Below are positions 9,701-26,013 of a stretch of 64,000 bases of DNA, piece by piece. Positions within the stretch are counted from its first letter, which is position 1. Every line of letters begins with the position of its first letter. The stretch comes from Raillietiella orientalis (taxonomy: Eukaryota): NCBI GenBank assembly GCA_036172245.1, contig JAYWIR010000029.1, forward strand, positions 186,001 through 250,000, read 5' to 3'. The translations under genes and the position numbers were made by a program. The notes below the pieces were generated by a model. It saw nothing but the letters and a program-made list of their open reading frames with translations, had not been told where the DNA came from and did not search any database.

Positions 9701-12700
9701 GTATGCTTACAGTTTTTTAATTTTGTTTTTAAATGCTTTTTTGATTTTTTCATAGCATGAATACATTCTTCATTGTCTTTTTTTTTCTGATTAAATTCAT
9801 CACATATTAATATCTTAAAAGATTATTTCTGACCCCTTTTGCATATTGTGATGAAATGCTTTAGATGACCTTATCCAAAGATGAGAACAGCAATATTTTT
9901 GGTTTTTAAGATACTGGATGTATTCAGTTTGCTGCAATTGTAGAATTTTTTCATTATTATAATTATGTCTTAATTTTCATTGTTTCATTTTTCTCCCCAG
10001 CATTTGAATAGGCTTTTATTGTGTAAAAGCAAAACTGCTTTTACTATGAAAATTATGGTCAAGTAACACTTAATAGTGCCATCAAATTGTAGTTGTATGA
10101 TAGAACTAACATCTTGCAACATATCATTATTAACAACATAAAAAAAGTTTGCTTGAATTTCAGAAAGTTAAAAAGAAGTTGGAATCCAGTTTTAAGATAT
10201 TTGAAGTACTGTTTATGTAACATTAATATTACTTGATGGAAAGCTCTGTTCAGTTGCTACTTTCGATTTTCTACTGTAGTTGTAAAATCCGAAATTTGGA
10301 TTCTAAAAATCCGTACAATGGCAAAATGGCATAGATTTAATTTTGGATATGTTACTTTTTTTTGACATTTTGGTTTAGAGCATAGAAATAAATGTTGTAG
10401 TGGAAGGTTTATGAAATTTGAATTTTGTTGGTAAAATTTTCGGTTCCTTAAAATTCACATTCATCTTACAATTTCAGCTGTTCTTCACAAGATACACTGA
10501 GTACCATTGGTAATTTGACACAGGATTCCTTCCAGAGACCTGTTTCTCCAACTTCATCCTTAACAAGTGAAAAAGGATTACCTGATTATGATCAAGTATA
10601 TTCATAATTTATTGTGAACTATTTTATTGTACCACAGTGTTACATTCCTTATGTAGTTCCAAGTTGAAAATGTGTGAACAGCACAATCTGTTCATAAATA
10701 TCTATTAAATAACTATTTTATTCAAAACATTTCATTTCATATTTATCTGTCTTCACGACATTTTGTAATATTTTAATTTCAAAATCTGTGGTAATAATAA
10801 AAAAACACCACCTTAATTAATATTAAGGTGGTGTTTTTTTGCATAAAGTTTAACTTCGTAATAATTTTTACTAGATTGAGTAACTTGGTCAATGAGGATC
10901 TGAATCGAGAATTAAGTTCTCTCTCTCATGTTTTAGTCAATACACTGTTGAAGTACCTTCCCACTTCTTTTTTATTTGACTTTTGCTTCAGAATGCATTT
11001 TTTAGAATTTCAAGTTATGGTTTATGTATTTTAATCTATGAAGGCATATTTTTCCTTTTTATTTTTACTGAATTTTGAATAATCGTAATAAACCAGAAAT
11101 GACTTTCATTGAGTAAATCAAATTGAAGCTTCAATCTGTAATGAAAATTTATTTTGTAATCGTAACTTCTGCATCTTTTTTTATGTCCATCTTTTATTAT
11201 GCCATGAAAAATATGCTGTATTTCATCAAATCAATTATGTAATAAAGTCAATGATAAAGTAATTCTCCTGTTGTTTGTAATCTCATCTGATCAGTATTGC
11301 GAATTCTTTTATAAGAACATTTTCTTGCATAAATACTTATTAGTACCTCATGAATGCTCCTGAGTGAATGCTTGGTTATGTTATGAACGGATACAGGAAA
11401 ACTAAACAAAATGAATAATAGGGAACATACAGATTATCCAAGATCAATCAGTTAAAACTGAAATGTATAGCAGATTTATTTTTGTCATTAAAGTTTATTT
11501 GAGATTGTAGAGCCTTAAATATCTGATTGAGTGTGCTCTTTCAAGTAGCCTGTTAAATTGACTCAGTTTTATAAGTTTATAGACACTGATTTTATTAAGT
11601 TGCAGCATGTTAATTTTCTTGGTACTTTCATCAATAATGTATCTACCCTTTTAAGTGTTGAGAAACTAAATTGCACAAATAAAAATATGGAATCTATTAC
11701 TTTTAGAATAAGAAATTGAATCCACTTTCAGCATTAACAAGTTGCTTTCCAGTAGTAGATTTGAATTTCTTCAGTCAGCACATATATGGAAAATAAATTA
11801 TTTGAATTATAATGGTATAATGGAAATGAAAATTTTATTGTAACTTCAAATTTTTAACTGTATGCAGCCATTATGTTCATTGCAATGCTGTACTTTTTTC
11901 ATGTTGATCAGTTGTACAGGTTGTTAAATAAGTCAGATTGAAATTTTCGATGATGCCTTGTTACATTAATGTTATTAAACGGTTATCACATTCAAAAATG
12001 AGTAGAGGGGGAGTGTGTTGGCAAACTGCACAAAGCATCATTTTAAAGCTCCGAAAAAGATTCCGTCAGGAATTGATTTCAATGGCACAGATTTTTTCAG
12101 ATAGCTGTTTATGATGGTATGTTACCAGGAGAATATGCAGAATCAATATGTGTTCTGTCATTTTATGTGAAATCTAAGACTCGGAAAGCAATCTTAAAAT
12201 AAATTTTGCTGTATACAACCATCGTATCTTTACACTTTTTTCCAAAGAGTCATATATTTTTTTAAGCAGAGCAGTTTGCTTTATTTGTTTTATTGAAGGC
12301 TACAAATGAAATATGTACCTGCAAGCATTTTCTTTTCGTAATGATTCATAAGGATCATTTGAGCACCTAATGAGAAATGGTGTTCTTGTTTCTGTCTCTT
12401 TCATTACGTTGGCATTGAAAAATTACATTGTGATTGGTGTTGCGAATTAAGTGACAGAACCACTAAAAATCAAAGAAATGTTTAAAGAAAGTAAGATATG
12501 TTCAGTTGGCTCATTAAAACGAAAATTTCCTCATTTAGGGTTTTTTGAGTTCTTTGTTCATTTTCAATGCAAAATTGGATGCAGTGAACAACAGTTTATT
12601 CTTCAGTTTTCGAAATACCGATTTTGCATATAACTTGTTGACTATGATTTAGGACAAACATGAAAAAGAAGAAAAAGAAAGGAAAATGCGATTACAACTT

Positions 12701-15700
12701 TACGTTTTTGTTCTTCGATGCATAGCATATCCATTCAGTGCCAAACCCACCACGGATTTAACACGCAAACAGCTGAAAGTAACCAAGCAGCACTTAGAGC
12801 AAATCCAAGCCAAATTTGAGGTCAGCACATTACTGAAAGAAACTCATGCTTCTATGTTTCATGTCAGAGTTTTTTTCGTGGCGAAATGCAGATTCCATCT
12901 GACGAAGCATTTCAGAACGTGATTCGAAATTATTATGATGTGTGCCTCAAATCTGATCGCCTTCTTCGCTTTGTGCAGTCTGGGGCCTGCTCCCAAAACG
13001 ACCTTAAAGAGATTTTTCGTAATAGCATAGAAAAGAGAATTAGGCAAGCAGACTCATTTGTTCCTTAGACAACTATTCTCAAATTTTCTGATTATATTAG
13101 ATCACTACCCGAGATGGATGGTCTTAGCAAAGAAACTGTACTTTCTTCTTGGGTTGCCAAATTTGATTGTATTATCAAAGGTAATGTTATCAATTCTCCC
13201 AGGGCAACCTTGGAATCACTTGAAAATTTCTTAATTTGCAATTTTTCTTCAGGAGAAGAAGAGGTTCGGAAACCTGCACGACTACAACCAACTTTAAATA
13301 ATGAACTAGTATTTTCTAAAGAACATCTGTTTGATACTTTCCAAAACATTTTGGGTATCAAGAAGTTTGAGCATCAATTGTTGTATAATGCTATGCAGGT
13401 GTGATGAATTAAAAGAAGTGCACTTTGCAATTTATTGTAATAGCTGGATTCAGCAGATGAACAAGCAGCAGCAATTCGTCGAGAATTGGATGGTCGCATG
13501 CAGAAAGTGGCAGAATTAGAAAAGGTAATTGGGATCTGCTTAATAAGTTGCATTTTATTTGTTGACAGAACCGAAAAGCCATGCCTAAATTTGTTCTAAA
13601 AGAAATGGAATCTATCTATGTTGATGAATTAAAATCATGTATCAGTACGTTAATGGCAAATCTGGAATCCCTGCCTGTATCTAAAGGATCAGCTGAATCG
13701 AAATATGGATTAAAAAATCTCAGGCGCTATAATCACAGGTAGAATTGGGAAGTTTTGAAATGTTGGTTGAACTGTGTTTAGATTGCCATTAACCTTTGTG
13801 ACAGACTTTATGGAAATCTTAGGTTTATATCAGATATGATGAGCAAACAGAATGACTGTAACATCTGGATAATTATATCTCAGATAATCAGATATTTATA
13901 CATCGTTTGTTATTGTTTGCCGAATAATTTGCACATTATCTAGCAAACAATCTACGATTGACCAAAATCTGGATGTATTTCTGCTCTTACTATAGGTGAA
14001 TTATTGATAAAGGAATTTGATATCTGGTTACATGAGATAACAACTATCAACCATTAGAATGCATGTGCGTTTGTCCAGATCCGCTTAGCTTTGTTTTTAT
14101 GCCTTCAAATGAATGAAACTGATTCAAGCATACTTTTGATGTGTGTGTAGATACATGGGTAATGACACCGAATAGTTATTATTAGTGAGTAGGCTTGTAG
14201 ATTTCAGCATTTAGAAATTTAAAATATTACAAGAACAGGTGTATGCTTTTATTATATTCTGATTGCCTTTTAATGGCATAGAAAATAAAAAGTAATTTTG
14301 CTTGAGGTTGACAGAGGAGGATCGCTTTTGCGAAGCTAGTATTAAAATTAAGGAAAGCGAAAAAATAAAGACGGTTCTGTGTTTAACCAGTGACACCGGA
14401 CAACAGTTGCGAAATACAAAAACTAATGTTGCTATTTAACTAAGTCATTGTTCTACACTTTATAAATAAAGTAAATTATTAAGAAAAATATCAAATTTAG
14501 ATATTATATTTGAAGTACACATATGCTCTTTGTGCTATGAAGAAAAGAAAACTGCAGTGCTTCTTCATTATCATTATTTTCCCATAATAAATCGGAAAAA
14601 ATAATGATAACTTACAATAAGAAAATGGATAAATTGAAATAGAATACACGAATGAATTTAAAAATAAACCTTGCAGTTCGAAAAATTAGACCCAATATTC
14701 ATTAAAAATCAAAAAAAAAAATTCATTGAAGTGCATTGCCATTTTTTATCTGCAGGAGTTATTCACAAGATTTATGCAAATATAATTTTACACCATTCTT
14801 GCAAATTTTTGTGCTCTTGATTTGAAGACATGAAACGAGATTAAATAAGAAATGACAAAGGTAAAGGTGTTAAGAACTTAACAGTGATCTGAATGAATAA
14901 AATGCAGTTTTGTTAAAAAAATTAATGATCTGATGAGAAAGTGAAATTGAAATCGCCACAATAATACAAGCCTATTTTTGGCTAAAAATTATTGAATAAC
15001 TAAATGATAACAGAGACATCAGTAATAATGGAAAAAAAATAGTACTTGTGAGATAAAGTATACTATTCATGCTTTGTGGAAGCATATTCCTGAATTGGTA
15101 TTTTGATTTTGCAAAAAGCGTACTTCAAGATCAGACACTTGAAGAAGACCATTTTACACATGACAAGTTATATCAATAAACAATGATTCTGAAAAGGATT
15201 AGGTTGTAAAATTACTAACTCTTCGATTGTAGTTTTAAAACTTCAAATTTTCGAAAGTATGATCGACTTGGTATGATGGAATTTAACACATGTAACCTTG
15301 CTACCATATTTTGCAATCTCGGAAACTGTGCACTTGTGCTTGTATGCCTTCTCAAGCAGTCATCTGATGCTGTGGTTTCCGATACGTAAATGTGCACAAC
15401 TTTTAAAAATATAAATTCTTTTTAAATCACAATCAGCTGTCATTAAACATGCAGTTGATTTAGTCATATAAACGAATTAACAGATTTTTATTATTCTCAT
15501 TGTTGATTAAATGTGCTGGTACTTTAGTTTAGTTTAGTTTGATTTGGTCTTCTTTTTTTTTTTTTTACTGTTCAAACATGCACAGACTGTAAGTTGAGTA
15601 TGGATCACACTTTCAGATATTTTCAGTGAGATTGTACATGAAACATTTTGACCTTATTGATCATTGATTAATGCTTGTGATATTGGGATAGTTGCTCCTT

Positions 15701-18700
15701 TTGTATTGATTTAATGTATCATTTGCTTGGTTTTTCAGCCGTCGCCGTGTCTCCATTCTCAGGCAGGTGTTTTATCCTGCATGTTTACTTTTCTGCAAAT
15801 TGAATGAAGTTGAATTTGTGTCATGTGATCTTTAGTGTAGTAAAACTAACAGCTTGCACATCCTCCTGGCTTTTGAATTTGTAGTTAGTCATCTTGTTGT
15901 TCCACTTTTTATGGGGTTCTTTAAGTTTAACATTTTTTTTTTCTTTATAGATCTCAGACTTCCTTACAAGGAGATCCTGTGGATACTGAGGTTCAGTTAT
16001 CAAAAATGGATGTAGTTTTGTCCTTTGGCATTGAGGTAGGGAAATTATTTGAAAAACCAATGCTGAAAAACGCAGTAGGTTATCGTCATTGAAGTCCGAG
16101 GACTGAAATCCTTGCCTCCTAACAGAGTCGTCTATTGTACTATGGAAGTAGATGGCACTAAATTACAAACAGATCAAGCAGAGGCATCACGACCTATGTG
16201 AGAAGCTATTTGTACATTTGTTTAGTTTAGTTGCATTCACTTATTGTATACAGGTGGGATACTCAGGGTGACTTTACTACTACCAACCCTTTGCCAACGG
16301 TAAAGATCAAATTATATGCTGAGTCTGCTAGCATGTTGTCCTTGGATGATAAAGAACTAGGAAAAATTATTCTTCATCCAACTCCATTTTCTAACAAAGT
16401 ATCAGAACTAGGAAAAATTCCCCTTATTAACTTTTTTGCTTTCTAGAGCCCTGAATGGCATAAGATGTTGGTTCCTAAACATGTGGCAGATACAGATATT
16501 CATATTAAAGTTGCCTGCCGGATGGATAAACCTTTAAATTTGAAACATTGCGGGTAAGTTTAGAATAGAAATGAGCTGTTGATAAATGATCGTAGTTATC
16601 TGTATGCCCTGGGCAAAGGAGTATGGAAAAAATGGAAAAAACGTTATTTTGGATTGGTGCAAGTTTCTCAGTATACTTTTGCTATGTGTAGCTATCGAGA
16701 AAAGAAAGCTGAACCGGTAGAACTTCTCCAGCTAGATAACTACACAGTTGATTATATTGAAGCAGCCAGTGGTGAGTAGATCTTTGCCAAAAAAAAAAGA
16801 AGACAATTTCGAATTTTATTTTGCATTCAGTTTTTTTTGTGCATTATGCATTGTTATCGTTTTTGATTATTATCATGTCACTTTTGATTATTATTGCTTT
16901 TGGTTTCTAAAAACTTAACGCATTCATAAATCAGTTTTTATTTCTTCTTTGTTTTCTTGTAATTATCACCATGAATGTTTCTTTCAGCCAATCTAATGGT
17001 GGGCATGGGTGAGTAGTCTCAGTAGGTACAAAAAATTTGCAAAAGTAATTTTGCTAAGATTTGGAAGGCGGACGTTATTTTTTCAATGCAGTCAAAGAGG
17101 GAGATAGCGTCATTTTTGCCAGTGATGATGAAAATGAATATCATTTATGGGTGATGGCGTTGTATCGTGCCACAGGTCAAGCACACAAACCAACCCCACT
17201 TCTGATCCCTGCCAGTAATAGGAATTCAACAATTTCAAAATTGCAAGGAGGTAAAAGATTTTGCCAAATATTTTAATGGCTTGTGTAGATGCAGATCGAG
17301 CTCGCAAGCATGGCATGGAGGAATATATATGTGCTGATCCTTGTCAATTTGACCATCATGCCTTGTTTAAATCACTACAGGAAATGGCACTTGATTTCAG
17401 ACTTAAGGAACCATATTGCTCCCTGGTGAATATATCATTAGCATTGACTACATGTGATACTGTAAATCAGGGATGGTTCAGTCCAGGACAACTTCTAGTG
17501 CTTGATGAATATGTTTTGCGGTATGGTGTGCGGGGATGCTTTCGTCATTTGTATTATCTGGAAGATTTGTTAACAAGAGCAGAAAGTGGCATTATGATCG
17601 ATCCCAATCTTTTACATTTTAGTTTTGCTTATTGTGCCAGCCATGTTCATGGAAATAGGTAAAAAAAAAAAAAAAAATATTTTACTTCTATAACAAATGC
17701 TGAAAACAGACCTGACAATATTGAAACTGTGCTTCATGAAGAGAAACAGCGGTTCCAGCAGGTGAAAGAGAGACTACGTATTTTGTTAGAAAATCAAGTG
17801 ACAAGTTTTAGGTAAGATTCTTGTTAGAAGTTATCCCTACGAACCTTATTTCTTCACTAACATTTCTGTACTTGTTAACCCTAACAGGTATTCTTTCCCA
17901 TTTGGGAGACCTGAAGGAGCCCTCAAGTCAACGCTTTCACTCTTGGAACGTGTAGGTGTTTTTCAACTGTCTGTTTTTTTTTCCCCAAAGCACCATTTTC
18001 TCCCAATGACTCCATTGTTTATCTTGACCTTTAATGCTCTACCTTCCAGGTTCTTATGAAAGATATAGTTACACCAGCCTTGCCAGATGAAGTGCGCAAA
18101 GTAGTGCGTAAATGCCTTGAAAATGCAGCTTTGCTCAACTACGAACAGCTGACTGCTGATATGCAAATAGAAGGTGAACAATACAATTTTTATTGCATTA
18201 AGTTAATTCACTTGATTTCAGAAAATTTAGATCCTGAATCACAAGTACTTCCTTCAAAAAAATTAGAAGATTTAATTCATTTGGCTGAGTATTGTGTAGA
18301 TCTTTTACAGCATAATGAAGAGCATTATTCAGAAGTAAGTAGCATTGAAAAGCACTAAAGATGTTATCATCTCGCCAGGCCTTAGCATGGTTTAGTGATA
18401 TTGTGGTAGAGCATGAAGAGATTTTCTGGTCATTATTTGTTGTGGATATGGACCAAGTTTTAGAGGAACAATCATTAGACACTTGGGATGCGTTTCCATT
18501 GTTTCAAATTCTCAATGATTATTTATGTTCAGATGGTAAGGATGGCTCATTCCCCTATCGAAAAAAATTTTTTTCTCATCCTTCCTCGCAGAAAACTTGA
18601 AGAATGGACGATTCCATCAACATCTAAGAGATACATTCGCACCCATGGTGATTCGATATGTGGATTTAATGGAGTCGTCCATTGCCCAATCTTTATTCAG

Positions 18701-20305
18701 AGGGTTTGAAAAAGAGCGCTGGGAACAAAAAGGGTATGCTAGAAGAATCATTCTCGTTTTTCTTCATTGATACAATATGGTTCATTTTCGCCACCTGGAT
18801 TTTATAGGAATGGTTGTAACACATCAGAGGAACTTTTTTGGAAATTGGATGCTTTGCAGACGTTTATTTACGATTTGCATTGGCCTGATCCAGAGTTTGG
18901 TCACCATCTATGCCAGAGACTCAAGTCACTTGCCTGTGATATGCTTGAATCTTGTATCCAAAGGTAAACTCTTTGAAACAGGAAACACCAGTTTATTTTT
19001 TCATAGAACTGACGCTGCATTTCATCTTTGGTTGAAAAAAGGAGGCCTTTTTGCAGGCACAGATTATGTTTTGCCTGCTGAACTTTGCACTATGATTAAT
19101 GTGGTATTAGATACTAAAAACCAGTCTTATAAATTATGTGTTCTGGATGGTGTTGATTTAGTAAGTAAAATATTGATATTAATACAAAAATATTTCTGCT
19201 CAGCATCAGTACCACACCAAAATAGATGAACTAATCGAAAAGACAACCGTAGATATTGTTCAGAGTTTGTTGAATAAACTGCAGTCTGTCCTTGAAGGGA
19301 TATTAGGCAAACTAGCACGTTATGATGAAGGGAGCCTTCTTGGTTCCCTGCTTACATTAACGGTAGTAGATTTTACGTGTTTTTCCAACTGACTTTATGA
19401 CAGAGTGTATCTGGCTCTGGCCGGGAAGTAGGTCAAGCATACATTACATTTCTGCAAAACAATATGGAGCAAATGCGCACACGAATCAATGATGAAATGT
19501 GGCTTTTGGGTTTTTTTGAGGTAAATGATCTTGGTTTACTATTAGCAACAATCCATTAGCACTATTCTGTTTTGTCTAGCAATGGTATGCAAACCAAGTA
19601 CGTTTAATTAGTTCTTGGTTATCAGAGCGGTTGGATCATACTTTGCATCCTTATCAATGTACTTGTCTCTGTCACATCGTCAAGGTAATCTCGTTCTCAT
19701 TAGTTATTAGCACTGAATTAAGGGATGGGTGGGATAGGCTCTTCCAGAGGTATACTTTGCTTTGGGGGTCACTACTAAAAGGCGTCAGGCTCCAGCTCTT
19801 GCTGGTATTGATCAGCGTCTGGAAGCCATGATGGCCCATCTGTGAAGTCGGCCAGCCATAGGTAGTTTGGTAGTGGGGTGTGCTTGCTAACTTGGTGATG
19901 GCTGTGTGATATCAGAATATCTTATGCTAGTTTTCTTATGACTGTTGTTTTTTTTTTTAGAAACTCTACTCTGATTTTGAGCTGCAAGGAGTGGTAGAAG
20001 AAAAGCTCAATTCTCGAACTTACGAAACTATTCTGTTACGAATGCAGTCCGAGGAAGCAGCATGTGCCTTGCTCATGGATACCCACAAATCCACATCATT
20101 AGATTTTCAAGGATCTTTAAGGAAGTCTTCACATACAGCATCCTCTGGTTCTGCCTCTGCTCTTTGTATCAATTCAAACTCTGATTCCAATTATGTCACC
20201 AAGATTCACTCTGCTACATCTAATGTGGCAGGCCGTATGAGCAACATGTTGGGAAAATCAATTGGCTCATTTGCCAATAAATTTGGTGGTAGTGTTCGCT
20301 TTTGA
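6758..20305 (+). CDS. Cadps: Calcium-dependent secretion activator (CAPS/CADPS, UNC-31 orthologue) with C2, PH and MUN/MHD domains. Exons: 6758-6945, 10478-10595, 12653-12820, 12868-13043, 13101-13180, 13253-13398, 13444-13524, 13569-13738, (15739-15762), 15951-16035, 16079-16197, 16254-16398, 16447-16553, 16596-16771, 16988-17008, 17059-17250, 17289-17425, 17471-17658, 17710-17811, 17888-17951, 18050-18173, 18222-18334, 18379-18535, 18592-18733, 18808-18963, 19007-19160, 19204-19362, 19404-19520, 19580-19684, 19961-20305
   Basis: The spliced translation gives hallmark CAPS peptides: [10 protein letters not shown] start, [62 protein letters not shown] (C2), [32 protein letters not shown] (PH), [55 protein letters not shown] and DFELQGV. 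Introns are GT/GC-AG with consistent phases. Confidence 0.97.
15739..15762 (+). CDS. Cadps: Putative 24-nt CAPS microexon encoding (S)RRRVSIL(R)
   Basis: GC-rich 24-mer after tttttcag in an AT-rich intron. It is phase 2 to phase 2 between RRYNH and SQTSL if the GC donor (ag|gcaggt) is used. Confidence 0.55.
19738..19845 (+). CDS. Cadps: Putative alternative terminal exon of CAPS ([35 protein letters not shown])
   Basis: Phase-0 open segment after AG at 19736-19737, which gives a 53-nt intron from the 19685 donor. It aligns without gaps to the start of the canonical last exon. Confidence 0.6.
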   Translation, partial: ALPEVYFALGVTTKRRQAPALAGIDQRLEAMMAHL

Positions 20306-21292: not shown

Positions 21293-22206
21293 ATGGTGTC
21301 TATGGCGGTTGTCTCTAGGAAACGAAAGTTTAGGGTGGCAACGGGTGTAGCGAAGAAGAGGAGGATATTTAGGAACCGTAGGGTGTTTAGGAGAAAGTGA
21401 TTGAAGAAGAGTTGTTGGCGGAAGCGACCGCGTGTGTCGAAACCTTTGAAGTGGAAGATGAGTTTTTTGAAGCGAGCGGTAGAGCGGATGACGATGATAG
21501 AGTGTCCGCATTACTGTTGTCACAGGATGAAAACAGGTGGAAAAGTCAACACAGCGTGGATGTTTAGTTATAGGGAGTTGGAAGGCGACGTATTGTCGTC
21601 ATTGAAGGATTGAATTTACAAGATTTGTGCAGATCCTTCCAGTACATCAAGTTCGTGGGAGTTCCGTATAAATTGGAGCCATTGACTCTTGGGAAGTCTG
21701 GTTCGACCATGGGAGAAGATTCGGGGCTTAAGATCTCTTATAGGAATATGATTTTGTTTGAGCCTGCAAGTGCTCCGGAGACAGCATGGAAGTTGGAGGG
21801 GAAGTCGTATGACGAGGTACAGTCGCACCTGAGTACTTACTCTGAGACCCCTGGTCATTGGAGGAAGTACTTTGGTGTGAAAGGAGTGAGGTGGTTCGTG
21901 AGATCGAAGTGTCGAATAAATATGCCGTATGAAGGTGGACCGAAGTATGTGTATCCGAGAAGTCCGTGGATGGAATGTGCACAAGGAGGATCATTAGACG
22001 CAGAGATGTATTGCAAGATTTACAAAGGACGGGTATATGTAATGAATCATATGTCAGGGCAGGAAATCCCGGACAACTTCAAGAACGGAGGGAACCAGGG
22101 TGTGTTTCCCGGCATAGGGACAATGAAGGCAGGAATGCCTGTGTATAGGCTATCCTCGAAATGTTATTTTGTTTTTAAAGGAGCGAGAGATAAAGGACTA
22201 TGTTAG
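21293..22206 (+). pseudogene. cap: CRESS-virus capsid-protein-like pseudogene
   Basis: ATG 21293 opens the Arg/Lys-rich arm MVSMAVVSRKRKFRVATGVAKKRRIFRNRRVFRRK*LKKSCWRKRPR, with an in-frame TGA at 21398-21400. After a frameshift near 21600, ORF 21610-22206 contains FQYIKFVGVPYKLEP, which resembles the circovirus-type F-x-Y-x-R/K-h-x-x-V-x-h-x-h-x-P strand. It is convergent with Rep. Confidence 0.75.
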
Positions 22207-22221
22207 TGATCTGATAAATGT

Positions 22222-23001
22222 TTATTTCGTCTTAGCAGGATACATCGGTAGCATCTTGGAGAGGAGAAGCTGGAGGAGTAGGCCTCTCGAATGGCATGAG
22301 GTTGCCTGCGTCGTCCATGAAGTTTTCTTTCGATTGGAATGTATGTCCAGGTCAATTATGGTCCAGCCATCCTAGCTCAATTTGGAGAAGTCAGATTGCC
22401 AATTAGCAAATACGATCACGTGGGATGTATCATAACACTTGATGGACCCCTGATATTTGGGGTCGAAGAGAATCCCGTTTTTCAGGGATTCGATAAATCC
22501 ATACTGGACGAGCTCCTTTGCATCGCGTGTGAAGTCGACGATGATAATCGACTCGCCATTGTAAAGATGGGCAGCGTCTGCCTTACAACTTTGCTTATAG
22601 ATGGCCTTTTTTATGAAAAAGAGATATTTAGCAAAGGTTGTTTTGCCTGCTTTGCCTCGTGAATCTTTGACCCAGTGAATCTTCCTTGTTCTGAGCAATT
22701 CAATGATGTCAAGCTGCCATGAGCGAAGACGTACTGAAGCCATCGAGTCGTTGCGGAAGATGCGGAAGCATTTCTTAATTAAATTAATGTCCCGCGAGTA
22801 AAACTTTGTCTAGTGTTCCAGGATGTACTTTTCGTTATACCCTGATTTGATAAGTTGAAGAATCTGGAAATAAAGATAAAGCAGTGATGTGATGAATGGA
22901 AGAGGTGAATTGATGGTTACCTTTTTCTCGTAGTTTTCTTCTGAGGGATTATCATCCAAGGCGCCGTATGTCCATGGATTAGGGTCTTGCTTGGAACAGT
23001 A
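22222..23001 (-). pseudogene. rep: Rolling-circle replication initiator Rep pseudogene, 5'-truncated; segments 23001-22921 and 22863-22222
   Basis: Contains RCR motif III YCSK (23001-22990), LRSWQ, Walker A region RKIHWVKDSRGKAGKTTFAKYL, Walker B IIIVDFTR, YGFIESLKNGILFDPKY, motif C HVIVFAN and KLS*DGW at the arginine-finger position (typically KLSxDRW). This is a nanovirus/alphasatellite-like SF3 helicase. Premature TAG codons at 22812-22810 and 22374-22372. The terminal TAA (22224-22222) overlaps a minus-strand AATAAA (22226-22221). Confidence 0.93.
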
Positions 23002-24784
23002 CTGTAGAGAAATAGAACAAACAATTCTCCGGAAAAATATTGAGAAATAAAAACTGGCTTAAAAATGAAAGCATTGATCCTAACTATTAGGCAATTACAT
23101 AAATAATTAAAATGAAAAAAGACAAATCACCAACCATCATCGTATGCAGTTCGAGTTTGCTAAGGAGTCACTAAGAGATGTTCAGATGAGTACATGGCAA
23201 TAATTACAGAAATAAAGGAAACGGTATTCAAGGAGGAAGTATTAACCATGCTAAGTCCTAATCTTGATGTTTACCTTATGTCCTTAGCATTTACATTGTT
23301 ATGTTTATTTTGTGAGCATAGCAATAAGAGCAGCATAAGCAGTTGCAGTTTCCCTAATTTGGAACCCTACAATATTTTTATTACTTTAGCAAATTAGGTA
23401 TGGGATCTCAAGCAACAGTTCATCGATTCTGCAGTAAAACAAAGAAATTAGCTAATTAATTACACACTTTGGAACGATAACTACAAAACAAGGAGAGAGC
23501 ATTTTCTTTTACATTAAACTTGAGAATGAAGCATTGTTAATAGTTACACTTGTATATTAATATGCTTAGCAAGAAACTCTGTAAAGAATTCCTATTAAGA
23601 TACAAGACATCAAGTGCTTGAAAGAGATTCACTAACAGTAAAGCTTTGTTGTGAGAGCATGGGGATCACTATCTGATGTACAGGTGTAAGTTTAGGTTAT
23701 CACTTGCCCACTATGGATAAGAGTTCGTTATGCCTTTCTTTCTTGTTCGTAATAACTCGAGTTTTACTGTATGTTTTTCCTTTCAGCACATAACTTTTGG
23801 TACTGAGGAAAGAACTAAATCCTTTCAATACAATAGCAACAGAAAATCTGCAATTAAAAACACAAAATGTGACAAAATCCAAAAGTTAAAAAACAAGAAC
23901 AGTGTCTCCTACAAAATCATTCCTAATGCGATGAAAGATCCTGAATAATTTCGGTTCCTTAATGTCCTCCTTGATTCATGAACATGGAACTGAGATAATT
24001 AGGAGTTAGTCTTTAAAAAGCTCCTAAATACCATGGAAAGAAATAGTACAGTTTTGATATTGCATACTCATTAATTATTAGGTGCGTATAAGTATGCCTA
24101 CCGCAAAAGATTTTGGAAAAAAATTTCTTTCTTGTGGACCTGTAATGCTTTTCATTCATGAATAGTCAGATACCAAATGTAATTAGCAAATACTGTGCAC
24201 AAGTAAGGTTTTTAATTTCCAAAAAATGAATTTTGGATGAATATCCAGAGGTACGAATTAGTATTTGGGTTGATTTTTCACCATGAATAATTTTGATTGT
24301 CATTGCAATAGGGAATAATTTTTGAAAAATACTTTAACTTTCTGATTCCTGAAAGATGGATTGAATTTTTCTTTTCTGAAAATTCCTGTAAAATATTTCT
24401 GTCTACACGAGCATTATAACGAATGGATCTTTCATTTCTAATAGGCAAAATTAATTTTTCTCTCGTATGTGCATTATTGATACACAACTGTGGAAATTTT
24501 TTTATAAGTTCCCTGCTTGATTGGTTTAAGCTCACCTTTTTTAAAGCTTAAATTTAAATTTCAGTTAGAGTTAATTTTAGTTATATCTGTGAAGGAAATT
24601 CTAATCTTTTGTTTAGTTAAGTTAAAACATAATCCTGAATACATATTGAGGTATGCTTTCATGTAATACAATGTGTGCCATTTTTTTTCCTCTCTTTAAA
24701 TTCGCAATGCGTATGTTTTGAGAGGTATGCGTTGTCTGATTGCATCGACTTGCAAAGTGTTTGCCCGTGCCATTAAATAGAACA

Positions 24785-26013
24785 ATGAATCCTCATTATT
24801 CGAAAGGTAATTTATTAATTTTTTTAATTCTTACATTCTGATGGATTAGTGTATACATTTCGTTTGCAGCTTTCCATAGGAGATTGTAAAGAATTAAGTA
24901 TCATAATGCAAATTATCTATGCAATAGCATTTTTAGTGTGACCAGTAGTTTTCATTTCAACCATTTCATATTCGGAAGATTGCCCTTTGATTGTATATTT
25001 GCTAACTTCATTTGGTACTCTATAGTACTCTATTGTTGTTGTAGTAACCGTGCCCATATCTATTGTATTTACATACCGTTAAAACATCCTTATAGTTTTC
25101 CATTTTTCATTACATATATGTAAATTTGTTTCACTGTTTTATTTAAGTTAAGACCAGAATAACATGTTTTTGTTAAAGGTTCATTGCTACCAACCCAGAA
25201 GTCTCAGTGTAGATTGTACGCCATGAAATTCTGCCCCTATGTACAAAGAATAGCATTGGCCATGACTGCGAAAAATGTAATGTATGTTTGTTTAGATTTC
25301 ATTGAAATGTAATCACTGATATTTTGTACAGATATGAAACAGTGAACGTGAATCTTGTAAATAAACCAGAATGGCTTTTTGAGAAAAACCCATTTGGAAA
25401 GGTACCAATTTTGGAGCACAATGGAAAAATTGTATATGATAGTCTCATTATCATTGATTACCTCGATGGTACCTTTCGAGAATTTCCTTTGCAGTGTACT
25501 GATCCATATCAAAGGGCTTGTGATAGAATGTTTATTTTATATCTTGACAAGGTTATTTGAACATGGAATTCCGGATGCTTCTTGTAATTGTAGATATCAA
25601 CAACTATGTACAAGCTATATACTGTCAAAGACTGGAGAACAGAAGCCTTAAGTGTGCAGTCTTCCTTGGTTGATGCTGTGACTCCCTTTGAGATGGAACT
25701 GCAATCTCGATCCACATCATTTTTTTCAGGTTAGTGTTATAATGGCGGTAGGATTGATTTTTTTGATACAGGAGAACGACCTGGATTTGTTGACTATGTT
25801 ATTTGGCCGTGGTTCGAGCGCATACAGATGCTTCCTTTGATTACACAACAGGAGACAGCAATATCTAAAACAGGGCTTTTGAAAGAGTGGATGAGGAACA
25901 TGATGTTGGACTTTGCTGTTCAGAAGCATTATATCCACCCCAAGCATTATTTAAAATTCCTTGTAAGTGTCCATGAGCACAATCCAGATTATGATATGGA
26001 CTTTGAATCTTAA
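24785..26013 (+). CDS. GstO: Glutathione S-transferase, omega class. Exons: 24785-24806, 25179-25281, 25332-25551, 25594-25729, 25772-26013
   Basis: RLYAMKFCPYVQR (omega active-site Cys), VNLVNKPEWLFEKNPFGKVPILE, YDSLIIIDYLD, DPYQRACDRM, FFSGERPGFVDYVIWPWFERI and C-terminal NPDYD. All introns are GT-AG and phase-consistent. Confidence 0.95.

Follow-up and report, generated by a model that had tools for sequence, protein, structure and literature searches.

The DNA analysed here (the window) is a 64,000-nt stretch of contig JAYWIR010000029.1 of Raillietiella orientalis. Its minus strand from 23001 to 22222 corresponds to the C-terminal two thirds of the replication-associated protein (Rep) of a circular Rep-encoding single-stranded DNA (CRESS-DNA) virus, and this Rep remnant contains a 57-nt segment with the features of a spliceosomal intron, which is the subject of this report. 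The viral element, about 1.7 kb in size, comprises a capsid-like gene and the C-terminal two thirds of rep, and lies between two host genes, CAPS and GST-omega. In the Rep remnant, the YxxK motif III of the nuclease is present as YCSK (starting at 23001; Y20 and K23 are invariant in 40 sequences), and the Walker A, Walker B and motif C sequences of the helicase are all present. Table 1 gives the coordinates of the features.

Table 1. Features of the viral element and of the candidate intron within it (positions in the window).
Feature	Position	Strand	Remarks
Candidate U2-type GT-AG intron, 57 nt	22864..22920	-	phase 0, multiple of three, free of stop codons in the Rep frame
Rep, remnant of the upstream exon, motif III YCSK to ...EENYEKK	22921..23001	-	27 codons; Rep homology begins here
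Rep, downstream exon: oligomerisation-domain helix ILQLIKSG, superfamily-3 helicase, stop TAA 22224-22222	22222..22863	-	192 bits to the family profile; starts at profile state 32
Walker A, GKAGKTT	22636..22656	-	G135, G138 and K139 are invariant columns of the homologue alignment
In-frame TAG, residue 83 of the read-through translation	22810..22812	-	from the translation
In-frame TAG, residue 229, within the conserved KLSxDRW motif	22372..22374	-	from the translation and the alignment
AATAAA overlapping the Rep stop codon	22221..22226	-	read from the sequence
Acceptor-like tract ttgttctatttctctacag	23002..23020	-	ends exactly at the start of Rep homology; 7.0 bits
Capsid-like gene converging on Rep	21302..22206	+	arginine-rich N-terminus, in-frame TGA, frame change, stop TAG 22204-22206

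Read on the minus strand, from 22920 to 22864, the segment is AAG/GTAACC...TTTATTTCCAG/ATT (slashes mark its ends) and measures exactly 57 nt; it may also be written AAG/GTAACC...CTTTATCTTTATTTCCAG/ATT, and it begins with GTAACC and ends with TTCCAG. An initial annotation, made from the sequence alone, had described here a donor, a pyrimidine tract and a CAG acceptor, in a segment located between endonuclease motif III and the helicase. Both the coordinates and the description were correct, and the tract upstream of the acceptor is clear (CTTTATCTTTATTTCC). When branch points were looked for by eye, only loose yUnAy-type candidates (TTTAT, TTCAT) were seen. Retention of the segment adds VTINSPLPFITSLLYLYFQ between ...EENYEKK and ILQLIKSG..., and its removal is in frame, both as the initial annotation had stated; the added peptide is hydrophobic and proline-rich. 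Removal also restores the normal spacing of 31 residues described below.

To compare the site with homologous Reps, we used for the analysis a profile made from 116 homologues, namely those of the 150 listed that cover the stretch from motif III to Walker A, together with 62 open reading frames (ORFs) from the 51 of 79 related IMG/VR loci that cover the site. In a MAFFT alignment with 15 region-spanning homologues, 19 gap columns (15+4) stand opposite the segment in 15 of 15 sequences, and against the 116-homologue profile the query shows 19 extra residues, placed as inserts of 5 and 14. Within this interval 107 of the 116 homologues have no inserted residue, nine have 1-6 and none has more; at the same site, the locus ORFs have no insert in 52 of 62 cases, 1-7 residues in 10 and more in none. 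The gap of 19 residues that the initial annotation had proposed to look for in the closest Reps is located exactly there, and a conserved equivalent of the 19 residues, sought among the 116 homologues and the 51 loci, was found in none of them. From the motif III tyrosine to the isoleucine of the IxxG helix, the query has a spacing of 50, which would fall to 31 without the segment. Among the homologues, a spacing of 29-31 is the modal class (42 of 116) and 33-35 is found in 33 of 116; the 10 of 116 that have a spacing of at least 49 carry their extra residues directly after motif III, which is a different place.

The two exon translations were also aligned to the profile separately. The upstream exon aligns to profile states 5-25 with six trailing residues unaligned, and its gapless extension reaches state 31; the alignment of the downstream exon begins at state 33 and leaves out one leading residue, so that the same extension takes it to state 32. 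The exons abut at states 31/32 with neither overlap nor gap, a result that depends on the gapless extension of six and one residues.

These comparisons bear on the possibility that the 19 residues represent a genuine translated loop insertion at the junction of the nuclease and oligomerisation domains, the GT...AG ends being coincidental. Such an insertion would be in keeping with a segment that is a multiple of three and stop-free, with the 1-7 extra residues that the same loop takes in some relatives, and with the insertions of about 20 residues that occur nearby, after motif III, in 10 of the 116 Reps. We nevertheless judge it improbable: more than seven residues are seen at this place in 0 of 116 homologues and in 0 of 51 loci, the peptide is hydrophobic and proline-rich where the others have a short linker, the composition of the segment breaks from that of the purine-rich coding sequence around it, and ends of 14.2 bits delimiting the exact excess length would be expected, by the estimate given below, roughly once per thousand cases.

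The splice signals were evaluated with log-odds matrices built from 24 host introns of the same window, 21 of which belong to CAPS (obtained by a homology-guided GT-AG search) and three to GST-omega (25282-25331, 25552-25593 and 25730-25771). On these matrices the donor of the segment scores 8.3 bits and its acceptor 5.9, which gives 14.2 bits; upon leave-one-out scoring, 4 of the 24 host introns reach 14.2 bits, and their median is about 9. Host introns measure 38-56 nt in 19 of 24 cases and 74-287 nt in the other five, with a median of 47.5. As 19 of the 24 introns are of 38-56 nt and CAPS matches arthropod proteins, the host is an animal with unusually compact introns. The segment, at 57 nt, is located at the upper edge of the main length cluster, and the likeness to host introns of 40-60 nt pointed out in the initial annotation is borne out by the 19 short introns mapped. 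Between 23100 and 22201 of the minus strand, the segment is the sole GT..AG pair of 38-76 nt with at least 14.2 bits. Null rates for such pairs were obtained from viral DNA (80 pairs in 421 kb of 79 related loci, both strands, that is 0.19 per kb) and from the codon-shuffled 780-nt Rep (0.07 pairs each). Taking 0.19 pairs per kb, a region of roughly 120 nt and the few admissible lengths, the chance of finding such a pair at the excess and with the right length can be roughly put at the order of one in a thousand. Another pair, 22840-22774 (67 nt, 9.5 bits), spans the first TAG of rep; it was rejected, as its length is not divisible by three and the homologues show an uninterrupted alignment across it.

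The same chance argument applies to the idea that the segment is a random insertion (filler DNA or slippage) which entered a decaying pseudogene after integration and has GT and AG at its ends by chance. The element is indeed decaying, with three nonsense codons and one frame change. A random insertion would, however, have had to bring a pyrimidine tract, an AAG/GTAA donor and a CAG acceptor together, to be in frame, and to be of such a length that its removal restores the modal spacing exactly. It also shows no repeat or duplication signature, and a second copy of the segment was looked for within the window and none was found. We regard this explanation as highly improbable.

The base composition of the segment was then compared with that of the gene and of the host introns. 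With 70% pyrimidine and 5% G, the segment is the extreme of 724 sliding 57-nt windows of the gene; among the non-overlapping 57-nt windows of the gene, none exceeds 65% pyrimidine and none is below 8.8% G. The coding sequence on either side is purine-rich, and the composition of the segment departs from it abruptly. C makes up 31.6% of the segment, more than in any of the 24 host introns (maximum 26.8%), and G 5.3%, less than in any of them (minimum 7.8%). Frequencies of C and G are 0.243 and 0.194 in the sense strand of Rep, and G is 0.319 and C 0.141 in the sense of the capsid gene, which is encoded on the other strand. As the whole element is C-rich and G-poor on the minus strand, the segment follows the viral strand bias and not the composition of the host.

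Composition is of relevance for a further alternative, namely that the intron was never viral and was gained after integration, by intronisation or by exaptation into a host transcript. Signals that fit the host matrices very well and a host-like length are what such a gain would leave, and the 7.0-bit acceptor-like site located where homology ends on the 5′ side could point to uptake into a host transcript. Nevertheless, viral replication in this host would call for the same signals in any case. The C and G values outside those of all 24 host introns match the strand bias of the virus. The segment is also unlike its flanks or any other sequence in the window, which argues against an origin by duplication. 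In addition, the host genes on either side of the element are both on the plus strand and Rep runs antisense to them, and rep carries two nonsense codons and therefore gives no sign of exaptation. Such a gain appears to us decidedly improbable.

The capsid-like gene and rep are convergent, and their stop codons are 15 nt apart. Since a capsid-like gene converges on Rep at that distance, the element was integrated as a genomic DNA copy and not as an mRNA copy, which agrees with what the initial annotation had proposed. We estimate at about three in four the probability that the segment is a genuine short spliceosomal intron that came from the virus and was retained because the element integrated as DNA. 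What is directly observed is the excess over the homologues, the splice signals, the agreement in length, the base composition and the arrangement as a genomic copy; from them we infer that the segment was actually spliced and that it predates integration.

According to this interpretation, the 57 nt would be a U2-type GT-AG intron of the rep gene of an exogenous CRESS-DNA virus, and a large piece of the genome of that virus would have been integrated as DNA between CAPS (which ends at 20302) and GST-omega (which starts near 25170). In the virus, the host spliceosome would have removed this short intron from the rep pre-mRNA made in the host nucleus; the nuclease domain (...EENYEKK) would thereby be joined to the helix with which the oligomerisation domain begins (ILQLIKSG), in a Rep of canonical spacing. 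The length and the signals of the segment fit the very short introns of this host and suggest a virus adapted to it, or to others whose introns are alike.

Several points weigh against a viral intron at this site. Since its length is divisible by three and it contains no stop codon, splicing of the segment is not required by the reading frame as such, and its removal from a transcript is a prediction from the sequence. Its length is 1 nt past the main host cluster of 38-56 nt, and the host matrices come from only 24 introns deduced by homology, at least one of which is doubtful (13060-13113, -4.6 bits, probably mis-drawn). The site is a loop that tolerates small insertions, with 1-7 residues in 9 of the 116 homologues and in 10 of the 62 locus ORFs. 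The residues flanking the junction are poorly conserved and the query does not have the usual GxRxDL motif, so that the placement of the junction rests on length and on anchors located 13 and 18 residues away. Finally, none of the 153 related loci that were compared (0/153) has an intron at this position.

The element as it stands today is a pseudogene. Nuclease motifs I and II are gone, two nonsense codons interrupt rep, and the capsid gene carries one such codon together with a frame change. A profile of 93 N-termini covering nuclease motifs I and II, run against the six frames of the whole 64-kb window, found nothing (best E 1.9), so this Rep copy is truncated at its 5′ end. A reading of TAG as a sense codon was ruled out, as host exons fit the standard code and the capsid-like ORF itself ends at TAG. 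Because the viral genes are contiguous with host genes and carry disabling mutations, the element represents an endogenous viral element, now decayed, within an animal genome.

Among proteins of solved structure, the best match of the Rep family profile is the Rep of porcine circovirus 2 (PCV2; 7LAR, 1.3e-29); the profile also matches, at about 1e-21, chains 2HWT and 6H8O, labelled replication-associated protein, which we take to be nanovirus nuclease domains. With these matches, the nanovirus/alphasatellite-type label of the initial annotation is to be regarded as tentative. A phmmer search with the Rep fragment gave no match among the solved structures, and PCV2 Rep was reached by the family profile only. 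The identity between PCV2 Rep and the Rep described here is low. Two forms of the PCV2 protein can be compared in solved chains (PDB 7LAR, 8H56): Rep reads ...QRSDLSTA-VSTLLESG and Rep′ reads ...QRSDLSTA-YSDYQQSD. As the chains diverge after QRSDLSTA, the Rep/Rep′ exon junction follows residue 122. Matched through the family profile, this junction corresponds to states 32/33, 0-1 codon apart from the candidate intron at 31/32; both coincide when the one difference in length is assigned to the part downstream of the junction. The two are alike in being located at the boundary between the nuclease and the oligomerisation domain. In PCV2, the unspliced message gives the full Rep, and splicing removes a large part of the protein and shifts the frame to give Rep′. 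In contrast, here the 57-nt in-frame intron must be removed to yield the canonical Rep.

Spliced Reps occur in mastreviruses and genomoviruses, and the initial annotation considered them untypical of Reps of the nanovirus/alphasatellite type. This view is too narrow, since Rep splicing is reported in cycloviruses, in TYLCV (tomato yellow leaf curl virus), in PCV2 and in the nanovirus PNYDV (pea necrotic yellow dwarf virus), and rep is interrupted in 8 of 153 related loci. Cyclovirus Rep introns are described as not uncommon and as having about 166-170 nt (PMC9241739, PMC3684831), and arthropod CRESS genomes with interrupted Rep ORFs were flagged by Rosario et al. (2018; PMC6186406). A 2026 preprint (bioRxiv 10.64898/2026.02.19.706752) reports that splicing excises the Rep oligomerisation domain in TYLCV, cites PCV2 for the same (with Bratanich and Blanchetot, 2002, for the splicing of Rep′), and states that Rep splicing was experimentally confirmed in PNYDV. 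It further describes several CRESS families in which the oligomerisation domain is spliced out, the resulting isoforms being truncated regulators and not replicative Rep.

The cycloviruses, as described in those accounts, resemble the element in having GT-AG introns in the rep of animal-associated circular single-stranded DNA viruses; they differ in the length of these introns (about 166-170 nt versus 57 nt) and in being exogenous genomes and not an integrated copy. Mastreviruses, genomoviruses, TYLCV and PNYDV share with it, as far as their splicing is described, the action of the host spliceosome on rep between the nuclease and the helicase parts, whereas their hosts are plants or fungi and their introns are longer.

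We also compared the 153 related metagenomic loci for an interrupted rep. It is split across ORFs in the eight loci mentioned above. In loci L047 (1242-1367) and L052 (965-1090), a canonical 126-nt intron, CAAG/GTATGT...TTTTCAG/A, is located directly after Walker A (GKTFLS/R/WLVEHK). The first frame change of L052 was searched for a GT-AG pair and gave no convincing one. Loci L059 and L060 show the same split-ORF pattern, and the intron itself was not located in them. The other group carries an 80-nt intron, GTAAGA...TACTAAA...CAG, at states 48-51 (L097, 593-672; L098, 611-690; L100, 490-569; L101, 596-675), about 17 residues downstream of the site studied here. It includes a branch-like TACTAAA motif, which recalls fungal or protist introns. 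The L047/L052 and the L097/L098/L100/L101 groups belong to the same Rep family as the element, with 32-35% identity in the best segment, and their introns are likewise of the GT-AG type, of 126 and 80 nt; they differ from the segment in that their introns are longer and are located after Walker A or at states 48-51, and not at 31/32. A frame change in another locus, L084 (about 829-841, states 30-33), at the very place of the candidate intron, was considered as an intron and rejected: it contains no extra DNA, and the pieces overlap by 13 nt. As there is no extra DNA at the frame change, it is most simply accounted for by a 1-nt assembly error.

Endogenous CRESS or circovirus-like Rep elements exist in animal genomes. 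They resemble the present one in having a fragmentary rep (with or without cap) and nonsense mutations and in lying between host genes. As both spliced CRESS Reps and endogenous elements derived from CRESS viruses are already known, the finding is confirmatory rather than surprising. In the literature searched on introns and splicing, no account was found of an endogenous CRESS Rep element that keeps a viral intron, which does not prove that none exists.

If the intron is viral, the integrated copy would record an animal-infecting CRESS virus with a very short intron, matched to the short introns of its host. This would tie the virus to a type of host more firmly than integration alone does, and the size of introns is suggested as an indication of which hosts the many orphan CRESS genomes have. 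The proximity of the PCV2 junction, taken together with the 2026 preprint, hints that splicing in the phylum favours this domain boundary. A broader proposal is that this boundary is a recurrent or ancestral splice point of the Cressdnaviricota (PCV2 Rep′, begomoviruses, a nanovirus and the present element) and that the 57-nt intron is a two-state switch; we put it forward as speculative and unlikely to hold as a whole. If it were true, removal of the intron would give the replicative Rep, and retention would give a Rep whose oligomerisation domain starts with a hydrophobic wedge of 19 residues and which would act as a non-replicative regulator of the Rep′ type. As a corollary, intron length in uncultivated CRESS genomes could serve as a fingerprint of the host lineage.

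Besides the 57-nt segment, the initial annotation had noticed an acceptor-like tract (ttgttctatttctctacag) directly before YCSK, and had taken it as a hint of a second intron. The tract is present. Acceptors as strong as its 7.0 bits occur locally at 2.2 per kb on the minus strand, and the chance that one of them coincides within a codon with the limit of homology is roughly 1-2%, which is suggestive. The 60 nt upstream of the tract are host-like (30% GC, 48% T). As this upstream DNA is host-like and the window contains no upstream Rep exon, a second intron is not supported, and the simplest reading is that the tract marks an integration or truncation boundary.

When the Rep sequence was used as a query in HMMER against 1.84 billion representative proteins, 5275 matches were obtained at E<=1e-3, of which 1972 also passed E<=1e-10. 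The top match reaches 1e-46 and the remainder about 1e-29 and weaker. The ten best matches were looked up and sit on contigs of 1.3-3.9 kb; close matches all come from metagenomic contigs. Identities in the best segment are 26-45% for the relatives found in scans of viral and metagenome contigs, and at most 50% in the protein search, so no close relative is at hand. Full-length homologues bear the Pfam domains PF02407 (Viral_Rep) and PF00910. The Pfam match of the Rep fragment itself is under the cut-off (16.9 versus 21.5 bits), and Pfam searched with the whole Rep read-through gave no match at E<=0.01. A single-protein scan of viral contigs with Rep returned 50 pattern matches, and zero were confirmed; a word-index search of proteins with the Rep read-through yielded 173 candidates, of which none scored.

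The best match in the protein search, P0002, is a predicted protein of 354 residues with two tandem helicase units and without a nuclease domain, encoded on a 3.9-kb contig labelled as a bacterial metagenome-assembled genome. A scan of prokaryote genome contigs with P0002 gave nothing, and it is probably a concatemeric or mis-binned CRESS sequence. Another homologue, P0137, has a hydrophobic insert of 21 residues (civvgvhgskgtilslclslc) right after YCSKEDKI, which is found in no other homologue; it could be another in-frame intron read through by the gene caller.

The capsid-like protein has an arginine-rich N-terminus (MAVVSRKRKFRV...), and the defects of its gene are an in-frame TGA at 21398-21400 and a frame change within 21574-21613. 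In a protein atlas, it is nearest to capsid clusters of the Cressdnaviricota (score 0.91), which we take as a lead only. No capsid homologues were found by a word-index sequence search, and when the two capsid pieces were compared by phmmer with 555 ORFs from the 79 viral loci, the lowest E was 0.39. A single-sequence AlphaFold model of the C-terminal part had a mean pLDDT of 31.8 and was unusable. A 53-nt GT..AG pair in the capsid gene (21590-21642) bridges the frame change in phase. It was rejected as evidence of an intron: it scores 4.1 bits, and 62 GT..AG pairs of at least 4 bits are present in the same 1 kb. As such a score is commonplace locally and a 1-nt indel explains the frame change equally well, an intron in the capsid gene is not supported. 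The nonanucleotide origin motif NANTATTAC has 9 matches versus 5.6 expected, and none of them is in or beside the element. The canonical AATAAA at the Rep stop codon is located where a polyadenylation signal would be expected in an ambisense circular single-stranded DNA virus, whose 3′ intergenic region is short.

Regarding the neighbouring host genes, CAPS (calcium-dependent secretion activator) is located upstream of the element, at 12653-20302 on the plus strand, and its best named matches are arthropod proteins with 63-69% identity. On the other flank, the gene encoding GST-omega (an omega-class glutathione S-transferase) occupies about 25170-26013, also on the plus strand, so that Rep is antisense to both. 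Further along the window, the G+C content climbs sharply: it is about 30-40% over the left two thirds and reaches 45-58% in the right part, at about 42000-64000, where long open frames are found on both strands.

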